Translations under genes and position numbers: made by a program
Shown here: in pieces, positions 6,093 to 35,171 of the stretch
Numbering within the stretch: the stretch's first letter is position 1
Layout: the number at the start of each line of letters is the position of its first letter
The notes under the pieces: generated by a model
Told to the model about the DNA's origin: nothing
The model's input: the letters and a program-made list of their open reading frames with translations, nothing else
Databases searched by the model: none
IMG/VR virus record: IMGVR_UViG_3300020042_008651
Span: 1-35,171 of that record
Strand: one strand, 5' to 3'
Origin: a virus
Taxonomy: Duplodnaviria > Caudoviricetes
DNA: 35,171 bases

Positions 6093-6121
6093 AAAGCAAG
6101 GCAGCTATTAACTGCCCTGCT
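6093..6121 (-). terminator. GC-rich hairpin, weak terminator or attenuator
   Basis: GCAGGGCAG-TTAATAG-CTGCCTTGC followed by only TTT. Confidence 0.5.
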
Positions 6122-8734: not shown

Positions 8735-8836
8735 TTAGTCGTGAGTGATTAATAATACTACATAACACATTAAAAACATAGCTAAACAAATTAATGCTCC
8801 TAAAATAATTTCTAAAATTTCATTGTTATCTTTCAT
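8735..8836 (-). CDS. 33-aa single-TM peptide (not in ORF track)
   Basis: MKDNNEILEIILGALICLAMFLMCYVVLLITHD; fills the gap between 8720 and 8826. Confidence 0.55.
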   Translation of the reverse strand: MKDNNEILEIILGALICLAMFLMCYVVLLITHD

Positions 8837-9083
8837 TTTCGTTGGTTATTATTTCGGTTGTGTAAAATGGCATCTCCATAGAATGATAGACTCTCTTAGT
8901 GTCTTTGATTAGGTCGTTGTAATGCTCTTCTGCCTCGTGATGACTTACTCTTGTTTGACCTTCTAAATTGCAACCATACTCACTTAAAATGGCATAGCCT
9001 AATTCTGCTTTGAAAATTGCAATTGTGATTAGATGTTCTTTTGAAAACATCTGGGTAAATGTTAATGATTTGATTTTTTCCAT
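8826..9083 (-). CDS. Hypothetical protein
   Basis: 85-aa ORF preceded by the RNA motif. Confidence 0.7.
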   Translation of the reverse strand: MEKIKSLTFTQMFSKEHLITIAIFKAELGYAILSEYGCNLEGQTRVSHHEAEEHYNDLIKDTKRVYHSMEMPFYTTEIITNENER

Positions 9084-9092
9084 TTTATTTGT

Positions 9093-9118
9093 GAAGTGTA
9101 GGATGCTTCGCCCCTTTT
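9093..9118 (-). ncRNA. Pseudoknot-like leader motif, copy 2
   Basis: AAAAGGGG-C-GAAG-CATCCTACA-CTTC, 9 nt before ATG 9083. Confidence 0.6.
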
Positions 9119-9120
9119 AG

Positions 9121-9408
9121 TTATAATTCTTTTTTAGTCATTATGTAACCAATAGGAAACTTTTTCTTACATTCACTTCCTATTCCCATTACCCAAGAAT
9201 CTGAATATTTGTTTTTATCTGATGATGGATATGCATCAAGACCATAAATAGAATTTATAAAATATTTTGGGTTGGTTATTGCTTTTCCACAGCAAGGGCA
9301 ATGGTCTAAATTTTCATCGTATGCTTTTTCTTGATTTCTGTTAAACATTGCATCATTAGATATTGTTGGAATAGAAATGATGTTTGCAGGTTCTTTTTTG
9401 TTTTCCAT
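9121..9408 (-). CDS. Putative Zn-binding protein
   Basis: CPCCGK ... GSECKK. Confidence 0.7.
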   Translation of the reverse strand: MENKKEPANIISIPTISNDAMFNRNQEKAYDENLDHCPCCGKAITNPKYFINSIYGLDAYPSSDKNKYSDSWVMGIGSECKKKFPIGYIMTKKEL

Positions 9409-9415
9409 TTTGTTA

Positions 9416-9462
9416 TCTTTTTACGACCCAACAAAGATATTTTTCTTTATTACAAAAACAAA
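9416..9462 (-). promoter_or_regulatory. Early promoter, -33/-7 boxes plus GGTC element
   Basis: TTTG-N19-TATCTTTG-TTG-GGTCGTAAAAAGA. Confidence 0.8.
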
Positions 9463-9505
9463 TAAAAAAATTATTTATTTTGTAAGTAGTTGGCTCTTAG
9501 CTTTC

Positions 9506-9694
9506 TTATTTTTTAAATTCTGCAAATCTCAAACCTAATTCAAAATAATAAGATTTATCAGGTACAAATCCATCTTCAAATAATTGTATTATAATAAATT
9601 TATTTCCATCATAAATTGATAATTTATAATTAAAACCTTCTTGTTTACAAAATTTTTCAAGTGGGGTGCTAAATTCTAATACTAACTTTTCCAT
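9506..9694 (-). CDS. Hypothetical protein
   Basis: Start moved to ATG 9694 (MEKLVL, 62 aa); the track's GTG start lies inside the RNA motif. Confidence 0.65.
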   Translation of the reverse strand: MEKLVLEFSTPLEKFCKQEGFNYKLSIYDGNKFIIIQLFEDGFVPDKSYYFELGLRFAEFKK

Positions 9695-9704
9695 AATTTT
9701 TATT

Positions 9705-9732
9705 TGCAGTGTAGGATACTGCACCCCTTTTT
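9705..9732 (-). ncRNA. Pseudoknot-like leader motif, copy 1
   Basis: AAAAAGGGG-T-GCAG-TATCCTACA-CTGC-A, about 10 nt before ATG 9694. Confidence 0.6.
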
Positions 9733-9736
9733 AGTT

Positions 9737-9943
9737 TTAGTTAATTGAATTTTGAACTAAATTAGCATTTTTCATCACACTTTTTCCTTCATAAACTTCA
9801 ATTGTTTGTTCAATTGTTTTTAGTGCTTTTACTAAACTATCCCAATCTATTAAATTGTCGTAAGTATGGAAATCTGCACAAGTATTATTTTTTAATACTG
9901 AAATTGATTTTTGGGCATTTTTTAATGCGGTTAATGTTTTCAT
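9737..9943 (-). CDS. Hypothetical protein (first gene of an early cassette)
   Basis: Start moved to ATG 9943 (MKTLTAL, 68 aa); the track's TTG is part of the -7 box. Confidence 0.7.
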   Translation of the reverse strand: MKTLTALKNAQKSISVLKNNTCADFHTYDNLIDWDSLVKALKTIEQTIEVYEGKSVMKNANLVQNSIN

Positions 9944-9968: not shown

Positions 9969-9990
9969 TCTTTTTGACCCTTCAAAGATA
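9969..9990 (-). promoter_or_regulatory. Early promoter, -7 box plus GGTC element
   Basis: TATCTTTG-AAG-GGTCAAAAAGA. Confidence 0.75.
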
Positions 9991-20041: not shown

Positions 20042-20087
20042 TTTGCGAATATCAAAAGTATTTTTACATTTGTGAGGTCAAAAAGAC
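20042..20087 (+). promoter_or_regulatory. Early promoter, -33/-7 boxes plus GGTC element
   Basis: TTTG-N19-TACATTTG-TGA-GGTCAAAAAGAC. Confidence 0.8.
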
Positions 20088-20230: not shown

Positions 20231-20839
20231 ATGGAAAACGTAAAATTAAATTTAAGTTCAGTAAAAGTAGGAAACTACAGATTTGAAATCTATGAAGAGG
20301 CTCTACAAGTAGGAGGAGGTATTATTATGAAGTATTTTGCAAAAAAGTTTCTTTTAACTCCTAAAGGTAAGTATCAAAAAGAAAAGTGTTTGTTCTTTTA
20401 TGCTTTTAGAGATGAATCAGTAAGAGATGAGAAAGTGAGCAAAAATATTGACAATATCACTGCCAATTTAATTACTCTTGAGAATGAGAAGGCTCAAAAA
20501 AAAGAGGCTCAAAAAAACCTTGTTAATCCTTTTAAAGTAGGTTCTTTGTTTTATGATTCGTGGGGTTATGACCAAACTAATATTGATTTCTTCCAAGTAG
20601 TTGAAGTTAAACCAAAGTCAGTAGTATTGAGAAAGATTGGTCAAATATTCCACAAGAGTGCAGGTTTTATGTGTGAATATGTTCTTGCTGATGTTGACAA
20701 TTTCATAGGAGAGCCTTTCGCAAGACCATTGAGAGTTAGTAGAGATGGAAAGTCAATTGGAGTGAATGCGGAGATGTCAAGAAGAGGGTTGTTGTTTGAA
20801 TATCACGGTCAGCCTAAGTATCAATCACATTATGCATAA
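20231..20839 (+). CDS. Conserved hypothetical phage protein
   Basis: 202 aa with FKVGSLFYDSWGYDQTNIDFFQVV motif (SH3-like barrel suspected). Confidence 0.8.
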   Translation: MENVKLNLSSVKVGNYRFEIYEEALQVGGGIIMKYFAKKFLLTPKGKYQKEKCLFFYAFRDESVRDEKVSKNIDNITANLITLENEKAQKKEAQKNLVNPFKVGSLFYDSWGYDQTNIDFFQVVEVKPKSVVLRKIGQIFHKSAGFMCEYVLADVDNFIGEPFARPLRVSRDGKSIGVNAEMSRRGLLFEYHGQPKYQSHYA

Positions 20840-32769: not shown

Positions 32770-33000
32770 TTAAAATTTAAATAATAATCTTTTTAGTAAT
32801 ATTGAACCATAAGCACCATAACCTGCATATGCAAAAGGTTCGGCATAAGTTTGCAAATTGAAAACATACGTTACCACACATACCCAAAAGGTAAGGCATA
32901 CTATACAGTTAAATGGTTTAAAATCCATCCACTTTGGGACTTGAGTTAATGAAAAGAATGATACGAATACCATTGCTATTCCAATTGAAGTTAATATCAT
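32770..33000 (-). CDS. Small membrane protein with CxxC
   Basis: KPFNCIVCLTFW and 2-3 hydrophobic segments. Confidence 0.7.
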   Translation of the reverse strand: MILTSIGIAMVFVSFFSLTQVPKWMDFKPFNCIVCLTFWVCVVTYVFNLQTYAEPFAYAGYGAYGSILLKRLLFKF

Positions 33001-34106
33001 TTTTTTAATATTTGTTTGTATGTATTATATCTTAATTCTGCTATCTTATCAATTGACTGCACTTGAACATCCAAATATAATTGTTCGCTTAAATCTTCAA
33101 TCATATTAGGGTTGCGAATTAGTTTAACCATATTTTTAAACCAATCGTGTTTGTTCTTTGCTTTAAGGCAATTCTTATCGGTTAGTAAAGTATTGTATGG
33201 ATGCACATCACTTACTATTACTGCCTTCTTTTTGAATCCTGCTTCAAGTAATTTAAGATTGGATTTCATATTGTTGAATCTTGTGTTTTTCAAAGGTATT
33301 AGAGCCACGTTTATATTGTCATAAAAGTAAGCATAGTTATGAACATCGGTACTTGGAAAGATTTCAAAGTTTTTAGCACTTGCTTTACCTTTACACGACA
33401 AAACACCTAACATTGCCTCTGATTCCTCATCTCCTTTTGCGTATCCACCATATATCATCTTGAATTCATCCTTGTACCTATAATCCGTGTATAAGGCTAA
33501 TAAGCTATCGTGCATTAGCATAATGTCATCAAAATGAGTTATACTACCACTCCAACCAAAAACTACCTTTAAATCGGATTTAAATGGTTTTGGCTCAAAT
33601 TGTGCCAATGGAGGTAATCCATTTGGAATAATGTAAGTTTCTTTTTTACCAACCTCTTTTTGTATCTCATCGGCTAATAATTGATGAGTGCAAGTAATTA
33701 CATCGGCATATCTTAAAGAGTCTTTTACATCAGCTCCTACACCTTGTCTTTTTGATTCGTTGTAAAGAATGTGGTTTGTAGGAAGTTGGAAGTCATCATC
33801 CATATCTAAAACAAATTTTACCCCTGCCTTTTTTATTTTATCGGCTACCTTTTTTGATTCCAATATTTTTGACATAGTTCTATTGCCTATTATCAAATCA
33901 AACCTTTTTATAAAGTCTATTGAATCTACACCATCTATTATGTCGGAATCAATATCTCCCGCTTGATACAAGTCTACTTCATTTGGATAAAACTTTGCTA
34001 ATGCCTTGTGTGGATTTAACAATCGGTGATAGTCCACACCATTAAGAGTTGACTTTTCACCTGGCTTTGTTTCCGAGTAACTTGGTATTAATACTAATAT
34101 TTTCAT
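32997..34106 (-). CDS. GT-B fold glycosyltransferase (GT4-like)
   Basis: GVDYHRL..P, DMDDD, IPNG, GWSGSITH, FNNMKSNLKLLEAG and IVSDV.PY. Confidence 0.85.
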   Translation of the reverse strand: MKILVLIPSYSETKPGEKSTLNGVDYHRLLNPHKALAKFYPNEVDLYQAGDIDSDIIDGVDSIDFIKRFDLIIGNRTMSKILESKKVADKIKKAGVKFVLDMDDDFQLPTNHILYNESKRQGVGADVKDSLRYADVITCTHQLLADEIQKEVGKKETYIIPNGLPPLAQFEPKPFKSDLKVVFGWSGSITHFDDIMLMHDSLLALYTDYRYKDEFKMIYGGYAKGDEESEAMLGVLSCKGKASAKNFEIFPSTDVHNYAYFYDNINVALIPLKNTRFNNMKSNLKLLEAGFKKKAVIVSDVHPYNTLLTDKNCLKAKNKHDWFKNMVKLIRNPNMIEDLSEQLYLDVQVQSIDKIAELRYNTYKQILKK

Positions 34107-34606
34107 TTCTTTAAAATTTTTGAGTATTCCTTTATTCTATTTTTTGCCTTCCTTAGTATTTCATAACTTATACCTGTTGCTCTATGCACCTTTGATAAAG
34201 TACCAAGTTCATTGTAATGTAATAAGATTCGGTTATCAATCTCATCCAACTCAAGCATAAACTCTTCAATAGTTTCTAATTCAATATTACTATAAAGAGG
34301 TTCATCTATATGAATAGGCTCTGCCGTTGGTAATGTATTATCTTGTCTTGAATAAATATAACTAAAATCCTCATATTTATAAATGATATAACCAAGTTTG
34401 CCTTGCTTACTAATTATATTTCTTGCGACACAAAAAAACCAAAAAGGGAGATGCTCTTTGGTCGGTAGTCGGTCTTCATTAATAGTCAATATTTGCTCAC
34501 ACACTTCTTGGAATATATCCTCGCAGTATTTCTTGTTGATTTTATAGCAAGTAGTTCTGAAACTATCATTGCTCAAAATGTGGTTTATAATTTCTTCTCG
34601 TGTCAA
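34103..34606 (-). CDS. Sigma-70/ECF-like transcription factor (probable late activator)
   Basis: Region-2-like EDIFQEV..ARN and region-4 HTH LSKVHRATGISYEIL. Start moved to TTG 34606 (167 aa). Confidence 0.65.
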   Translation of the reverse strand: MTREEIINHILSNDSFRTTCYKINKKYCEDIFQEVCEQILTINEDRLPTKEHLPFWFFCVARNIISKQGKLGYIIYKYEDFSYIYSRQDNTLPTAEPIHIDEPLYSNIELETIEEFMLELDEIDNRILLHYNELGTLSKVHRATGISYEILRKAKNRIKEYSKILKK

Positions 34607-34617
34607 AATTTTTGCAT

Positions 34618-34645
34618 AAAAAAAAGCACCAATAAATTGATGCTT
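34618..34645 (-). terminator. Rho-independent terminator immediately upstream of the sigma-like gene
   Basis: AAGCATCAAT-TT-ATTGGTGC followed by T8. Confidence 0.7.
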
Positions 34646-34693: not shown

Positions 34694-35137
34694 TTATATT
34701 GATACTTTCTCAATACTTCTTCCACTGCCATAACATTCAAAACATATACCTTCACAATAATAATTAAATGCTTCTATTATACCTTTTCCATTACATCTTG
34801 AGCATTCACACCCTTGTGTAAATTGCTCACCGATATAAACTTTATTTTTATTTAAAATTTTACCAAGAAATCTTAATATTTCGTTTTCAGATATTTTGCC
34901 TCCAAAATAGTTGACATACTTTTTGCCAAAACCTAAAACTTCAATATTAAATTTATACAAAGAACCATCTTCATTTTTAAACTTTGGATTAGTCCAAACT
35001 CTACCTTGCTCTTGTATTGCAATTTTAAGATATCCATTATCTATGCACTTATTTATTGACCTTGTTATGCTACTTCTATTGTCAGAATCACAAGACCTAT
35101 TTGCTTTATTTAAAATTTGTTTAATGTAATTTTCCAT
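34694..35137 (-). CDS. Protein with DnaJ-type zinc finger
   Basis: CSRCNGKG...CFECYGSG. Confidence 0.8.
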   Translation of the reverse strand: MENYIKQILNKANRSCDSDNRSSITRSINKCIDNGYLKIAIQEQGRVWTNPKFKNEDGSLYKFNIEVLGFGKKYVNYFGGKISENEILRFLGKILNKNKVYIGEQFTQGCECSRCNGKGIIEAFNYYCEGICFECYGSGRSIEKVSI

Positions 35138-35171
35138 TTTATAAATGCAGTTGGTTGGATGCTGCTCCCCT
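35004..35171. repeat. Terminal direct repeat, right copy
   Basis: Matches 1-168 with one substitution. Confidence 0.95.

Follow-up and report, generated by a model that had tools for sequence, protein, structure and literature searches.

The nutR site of phage lambda and the put site of HK022 lie early in the early operon, after the first gene, and antitermination by put needs no phage cofactor. In T4-type phages, PeSL cassettes are conserved non-coding blocks that bound swapped small early genes. The element described here is 22–25 nt long and has the same position as nutR and put, but it has no boxA/boxB, no twin hairpins, no close terminator and no shared N-like protein. It differs from the PeSL blocks in that the swapped gene is bounded on the right by a pseudoknot that covaries and lies apart from the promoter.

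Hammerheads that flank single phage genes, as covered in part by Perreault et al. 2011 (PMC3088659), and the plain hairpins of the phages studied here are likewise small early intergenic RNAs that are sometimes repeated. Compared with the hammerheads, the element is about half the size, has crossing stems, shows no sign of cleavage, and lacks the three-stem catalytic core. The pseudoknots reported as obstacles to RNase E (PMC9943677) are, like the element, H-type, coaxial (predicted here) and situated in A/U-rich mRNA; the tests in the sections of that study drawn on here used viral and telomerase pseudoknots in E. coli reporters, whereas the element occurs naturally, as a phage family, and is at the lower end in size. 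REP sequences, to go by the corresponding sections of PMC12306157, are also repeated intergenic structures close behind a stop codon, and are linked to mRNA stability and translation. However, REPs are chromosomal palindromic stem-loops, while the element is a phage pseudoknot with 1–3 copies per genome. ToxI and phage pseudo-ToxI share with it a 22–25 nt H-type core, a G at the turn of loop 1, loop adenines and A-rich tails (PMC8860590, PMC5086642). Relative to ToxI as given in the excerpted parts of those papers, the element is not tandem, has no toxin gene, lacks the positions of the U:U:G triplet and has variable tails.

The comparison with Rfam proposed in the original prediction returned nothing for the window copies or beyond them: no Rfam 15 covariance model matched over a copy in the window (E ≤ 1), in 10 loci including type B (E ≤ 5) or in 20 loci at the gathering thresholds. 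No description of the motif was found in the literature, though Fremin et al. 2023 (PMC10690425) screened intergenic regions of IMG/VR, and the element could be among the 10,006 unnamed candidates mentioned in the portion of that paper used here. It is a genuine pseudoknot family of two subtypes that marks a hypervariable first-gene slot, and is apparently uncatalogued.

The window, the whole 35,171-nt stretch of DNA that was analysed, is a circular 35-kb phage assembly with 30.6% GC and a terminal overlap of 168 nt (1 mismatch). It encodes a terminase, portal, tape measure, Erf, exonuclease, SSB and helicase. The best matches of the terminase are to Flavobacterium phages (54%), which together with the promoter boxes suggests a host in the Bacteroidota. 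These boxes are TAnnTTTG sequences at 9990, 9439 and 625 that we take to be Bacteroidota −7 promoters. The original prediction of three minus-strand copies was borne out – the copies are distinct, all intergenic, and far above chance (Table 1). A pattern scan of the window with up to 2 mismatches gave 5 matches against 0.65 expected, a number reached in 0 of 100 shuffles, while a structure descriptor found exactly copies A, B and C, with 1 match in 30 shuffled windows; a covariance-model scan of the window gave no further strong copy beyond these. The equivalence of 144–172 and 35147–35170 is indeed the terminal overlap, and the copies do lie one or two genes past an early promoter, A and B after the first gene and C after the second. 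The motif had also been drawn with an ATG GAA AA at its end. ATG GAA follows all three copies, but many second codons occur across the family, and as a pairing partner or motif component it was rejected as not conserved.

Table 1. Positions of the pseudoknot copies and the surrounding features in the window
Feature	Position	Strand	Remarks
Pseudoknot copy A	9706–9727	−	Stem 1, nt 1–3/12–14; stem 2, nt 6–9/19–22; 9 nt after upstream stop, 11 nt before ATG
Pseudoknot copy B	9093–9114	−	A-U at pair 7:21; 6 nt after stop, 9 nt before ATG
Pseudoknot copy C	144–167	−	6-nt loop 3; 8 nt after stop, 9 nt before ATG
Duplicate of copy C in terminal overlap	35147–35170	−	Not a fourth copy
Putative Bacteroidota-type −7 promoter box, copy A transcript	9983–9990	−	Consensus match only
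Putative −7 promoter box, copy B transcript	9432–9439	−	Consensus match
Putative −7 promoter box, copy C transcript	618–625	−	Two genes upstream of copy C
First early gene upstream of copy A	9737–9943	−	68 aa, no family
Gene downstream of copy A	9506–9694	−	62 aa, no family
First early gene upstream of copy B	9121–9408	−	95 aa, no family
Gene downstream of copy B	8826–9083	−	85 aa; operon continues to Erf, exonuclease, SSB
Gene upstream of copy C	176–385	−	69 aa, no family
Gene downstream of copy C	34694–35137	−	147 aa
Terminator-like hairpin with U8, ending copy C transcript	34618–34645	−	About 500 nt after copy C; read directly

Several other features of the window were recorded. Four minus-strand boxes (9990, 9439, 2612 and 625) are each followed by a shared GGTC, and three of them also by a short GTC...GAC/GAT hairpin close to where the transcript is predicted to begin; other short leader hairpins occur in related phages. 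A −7-like box adjoins the terminator hairpin (34653–34618, minus strand), and a transcript from it would omit the 5’ arm of the hairpin and could express the ORF at 34103–34615, which may be sigma-like and had no Pfam or PHROG match. The only long plus-strand ORF in this otherwise single-strand genome is at 20231–20839, with a promoter-like box nearby at 20065 (+). Two glycosyltransferase-like genes on the minus strand, 702–1571 and 32997–34106 (phrog_842 and phrog_7162), suggest DNA or surface modification.

In the more common form of the element, type A, numbered from its first G, positions 1–3 pair with 12–14 (stem 1) and 6–9 with 19–22 (stem 2). Loop 1 consists of G4 and one variable base, loop 2 is Y-A, and loop 3 is 4–7 nt ending in A. 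Pairs were tested by pattern scans in which the partner positions were left free. In the first of these (scan 40), 56 of 59 matches were kept and 3 set aside as chance; pair 1:14 was G-C in 51 and A-U in 5, pair 2:13 was G-C in 55 and A.C in 1, and pair 7:21 occurred as all four Watson-Crick types (C-G 50, A-U 3, U-A 2, G-C 1). With stem 2 free (scan 41), the stem was retained in 42 of 45 matches, the 3 unpaired ones being set aside; G6.U22 was found in 4, and one had changes at both 7:21 and 8:20. In scan 42, G3, G4, A11 and U12 were invariant in 61 of 61, and position 10 was C in 56 and U in 5. A metagenome scan with 21 matches had 7:21 paired in all, 1:14 paired in 20 (G-C 9, A-U 10, G.U 1; the other was A.C) and 8:20 paired in 20 (A-U 14, G-C 6; A.C 1).

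An alignment of 56 distinct cores (A2), from which 32 loci had been excluded beforehand as chance matches by their GC-rich or coding context, was paired in 99.2% of cells, with double changes in 3 of 7 pairs, which 0 of 500 shuffles equalled; the cell counts are of sequences rather than independent events. Four loci were excluded before an alignment A1, and 21 of the 26 rows of a further match set were dropped. Pairing fell to 33–59% in slid registers of the 56 cores; in the cores themselves, G3.U12 and G9-C19 never vary. A single hairpin from the G run to nt 10–15 was rejected, with 86% paired and no double changes. G.U variants are present and A.C almost never, so the sense strand is favoured. 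The sequences support an H-type pseudoknot on that strand with compensatory change in both stems. The covariation sought by the original prediction in a larger alignment is thus present in both stems, as is the GCAG/CTGC versus GAAG/CTTC change among the window copies. Its proposed pairing of an invariant GGG with a loop UCC is supported as regards a pseudoknot, since the crossing stems covary, but not as regards the invariance: pair 1:14 covaries and stem 1 is different in type B. Nested folding energies of the window copies were no better than those of shuffles (z −0.8 to +0.5), so stability is predicted to rest on tertiary contacts. In vivo the fold would be held by loop contacts, namely the invariant G of loop 1 and the terminal A of loop 3.

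The second subtype was found through synteny, by looking at what follows the first post-promoter gene in Erf-neighbour loci chosen without the motif. The 86 loosely defined units of this kind had 10 type A copies, 5 related knots and 4 plain G-rich hairpins. A descriptor search over 1.9 Mb gave 9 type B copies and 2 off-slot matches, and a pattern search of 49 records added one copy; most of the 45 descriptor matches that were not type A have a second helix of A/U pairs only and were treated as plain hairpins rather than pseudoknots. The 10 type B copies have other stems but the loop signature and slot of type A. Loop 1 is GG, stem 2 has five pairs, and there are at least five different stem-1 sequences, each paired. 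Stem 2 is paired in 50 of 50 cells, evidence that is weak alone, with only 1 double change and 96 of 500 shuffles equal. Most of the positions that are invariant in type A (G3, G4, A11, U12) are changed. Three loci bridge the subtypes, with the type A loop 2 and stem-1 3’ strand retained in type B. Architecture (geometry and loop contacts) rather than sequence is conserved across the subtypes. In six loci (L138, L143, L148, L151, L156 and L163), type B copies lie 16–21 nt before the Erf recombinase gene itself.

A strict pattern scan of IMG/VR found the element in 121 stretches (ca. 180 estimated), nearly all of them AT-rich and intergenic. Some copies have no leading AAA run, so the family is larger than the patterns found. 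In all, considerably more than a hundred contigs of uncultured phages, whose hosts are probably Bacteroidota, carry the element. It is usually in single copy and not tandem: of 50 records searched by covariance model, all of which contain a match by construction, 7 hold 2–3 strong copies. No credible copy was found in 185,579 GTDB genomes with a tighter pattern, which variant prophage copies would escape; the 1 match was GC-rich with a mismatched 7:21 pair. Membership among REPs, which are repeats of host chromosomes, was rejected on this count. BLAST of cultured phages with type A and type B gave chance pieces only, and neither the model nor the descriptor detected a copy in FpV9, P12024S, 27 kb of elemoA_2-5C or 20 kb of PT33.

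Among 18 near-complete carriers, 15 have one virion set in common and 3 do not. Widely present families are structural or recombination proteins, and no protein family was common to all 18, although BLAST could miss a very divergent short protein. The flanking genes belong to many families – 92 among 134 upstream and 64 among 137 downstream – and have no common pathway and no match to a toxin family. Only 9 of 87 upstream representatives had PHROGs matches, all of unknown function, and 2 of 75 downstream proteins had Pfam matches, both DUF932. With no cognate phage protein and unrelated flanking genes, the element would depend on host machinery or plain mechanics, and is most simply read as a compact mechanical device within the mRNA.

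The variability is concentrated in the gene before the element. The second gene is 88–93% identical within five lineages and 72% within a sixth, and the promoter region is 80–99% identical in three lineages, while the first gene is at background (50–57%). Within the lineages of conserved second genes, the number of first-gene families was 12 in 16 instances, 8 in 11, 10 in 11, 7 in 10, 6 in 6 and 5 in 5. These figures show a hypervariable first gene that is exchanged between phages with conserved flanks. In 10 instances the gene 3’ of the element is of the same family as that after copy B, and the upstream genes in these belong to 7 families; a homolog search with the copy B gene gave no confirmed relative. 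A close homolog of the gene after copy C lies upstream of a copy in another locus (L125). Neither the swappable first gene nor the tight link to the upstream stop codon described below was part of the original prediction. The conserved sequence of the element is likely to serve, as a by-product, as the right-hand homology boundary for exchange of the first gene.

The reading we prefer, at a probability of about 40%, is that the element is a passive coaxial barrier that stabilises the downstream message and insulates it from the swappable first gene. It corresponds to the stabilising or processing role among the three functions originally proposed. A host enzyme of the RNase E/G type, scanning from the 5’ end of an A/U-rich early transcript, would be slowed at the knot, which lies along the scanning path where a hairpin would be bypassed. 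The lifetime of the downstream message would then be independent of whichever gene fills the first slot, and the knot may also slow 3’ trimming of the first-gene fragment. In the sections of PMC9943677 drawn on, H-type pseudoknots impede scanning by RNase E and stem-loops are bypassed; the more coaxial pairs, the greater the protection, and the smallest knot tested was that of BWYV, with 8 pairs. The element has 7–9 predicted stacked pairs and so may be a weak barrier. Bacteroides thetaiotaomicron has a member of the RNase E/G family, but a barrier assumes that the Bacteroidota enzyme scans like that of E. coli, in a host that is itself deduced from the phage sequence. Against it, too, the near-invariant sequence of type A across unrelated virion lineages could reflect specific recognition by a host factor, and plain hairpins in the same slot would not be expected to block scanning. 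Such G-rich hairpins, some U-tailed, occupy the post-first-gene slot in four loci (L169 at 3700, L192 at ca. 10150, L197 at ca. 15150 and L161 at ca. 4600). In one carrier (L452, 1249–1303, plus strand), a complete hammerhead-like core with three stems and both conserved core segments, below the Rfam gathering score, lies where a 270-nt leader ends and directly precedes the gene upstream of the pseudoknot. Given these hairpins and this core, the region appears to be used for mRNA punctuation.

The spacing of the element bears on a role at the ribosome. An upstream gene was present for 141 of 146 type A instances, and the distance from its stop codon to G1 was 6–14 nt in 137 of these, with a mode of 7 and never less than 6, despite a stop triplet 0–5 nt before G1 in some frame in 62. 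The distance from the end of the knot to the ATG was 6–11 nt in half of the copies (75/150) and 15–33 nt in nearly all others (73/150), but never 12–14 nt, where 13 of 48 plain hairpins lie. This gap may reflect mechanism or the modular 10–11 nt start regions of these phages. Over all instances, the distances cluster near 7–11, 18–23 and 27–33 nt, about 10–11 nt apart. A knot that aids SD-blind initiation on the second gene, blocks re-initiation, or brakes termination on the first gene in the manner of REP stem-loops lying up to 15 nt past a stop codon, would be consistent with these limits. The excerpted parts of two papers report that REPs less than 16 nt from a stop codon lower translation (PMC12306157) and that Bacteroidota ribosomes ignore SD sequences (PMC7797042). 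However, plain hairpins in the same phages also peak 6–8 nt after the stop, more loosely (43 of 68 at 6–14 nt, 8 under 6). The stop spacing is therefore largely generic, mostly a matter of staying clear of the ribosome, and under the barrier model a spacing of no less than 6 nt from the stop and 6–7 nt from the start would likewise keep the knot outside ribosome footprints. The copies far from the start, the four gene families that occur at both start spacings, and the enhancement of F. johnsoniae initiation by reduced structure, also from the part of PMC7797042 used here, argue against a ribosomal role, which we consider unlikely though deserving serious attention. The translation enhancer first proposed on the strength of ATG GAA loses that argument, and half of the copies are 15–33 nt from the start. 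An improbable version is that the knot docks on the 30S platform in place of the SD helix and passes first-gene ribosomes to the operon, as a minimal bacterial counterpart of an IRES. Recoding by readthrough or frameshift was rejected: the knot spacing (mode 7 nt) falls within the 5–9 nt expected, but no fixed frame joins the ORFs, the relative frames 0, 1 and 2 of the flanking genes being 23, 38 and 32 of 93.

In most cases the element comes after the gene that is first from a Bacteroidota-type promoter: of 129 complete upstream genes, 93 are preceded by a −7 box, compared with 61 of 753 control ORFs, and 4 by another copy. This position resembles that of lambda nutR after cro. It would suit a factor-independent, put-like mechanism, in which the knot, as it emerges, would attach to host RNA polymerase or to a Nus factor and so counter pausing or Rho-dependent termination in the early operon. 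Yet a scan for U-tailed hairpins found none in the 400 nt that follow each of 38 copies, nor any in the scanned downstream stretch for 14; the scan omitted copy C, which is at the contig end and has its terminator ca. 500 nt on. Of the two downstream terminators originally proposed, the hairpin at 34618 does have a U8 tail, while the one at 6093 has a weak U tail and is 3 kb after copy B. Several phages with 2–3 copies within one operon, and the exclusion of a shared N-like factor at the sensitivity of BLAST, also weigh against antitermination. We regard the put-like mechanism as improbable, and a nut-type site with a cognate antiterminator, one of the readings first put forward, is weakened by the lack of a close terminator and of a protein family common to all 18 carriers.

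To our knowledge, the element is smaller than known ribozymes and riboswitch aptamers. A ligand aptamer, an operator for a host protein or a part of a self-cleaving motif would account for the invariance of the unpaired or wobble bases G3, G4, A11 and U12, and hammerheads are described from such phage gaps in the portion of PMC3088659 used here. Against this, type B departs at most of these positions and the flanking genes have no pathway in common. A preQ1-I-like riboswitch was rejected, with so many downstream families and no one pathway among them. We give little credence to these other kinds of RNA chemistry.

A pseudo-antitoxin released from the early mRNA could act as a decoy, mimicking a type III antitoxin knot and inhibiting a host endoribonuclease toxin. 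In the excerpted PMC8860590, ToxI has as its core an H-type knot of 25 nt and two 4-bp stems, much like the element, with the conserved loop-1-turn G, A-minor loop adenines and A-rich tails; phage pseudo-ToxI is known (PMC5086642, in part), and the early position suits anti-defence. But no Rfam family matched, the copies are usually single, no matching arrays occur in the GTDB genomes, ToxN binding needs specific tails where those of the element vary, and ToxN is reported mainly from Firmicutes and Fusobacteria in the same part of PMC5086642. A search for the ToxN family gave no match anywhere, its controls included, and so has no bearing on the decoy. As a type III antitoxin proper (ToxI/CptI/TenpI), the element was rejected: the compact core with A-rich tails is there, and tandem repeats upstream of a toxin gene are not. 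The decoy earns very little credence. Hardly credible is a DNA homology block for cassette exchange, or an antisense terminator, with an incidental RNA fold – the element does bound the hypervariable slot and the opposite strand at copies A and B scores terminator-like, but homology does not need compensatory changes in two crossing stems, the G.U variants turn into A.C mismatches on the complementary strand, and copies without the A run exist.

Few natural pseudoknots with covariation in both stems are as small as this element, and its two subtypes make it a clean structural object. In many aquatic-type Bacteroidota phages it is the marker of a hypervariable first-gene slot, and the 87 upstream families, none with a known function, offer a list of genes that may serve host takeover or anti-defence. 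Should the barrier model be true, the element would be a natural case of a phage tuning mRNA decay by a pseudoknot; if the ribosome model is true, it would bear on the recruitment of SD-blind ribosomes. Under either model, it could be a portable expression part for the Bacteroidota.
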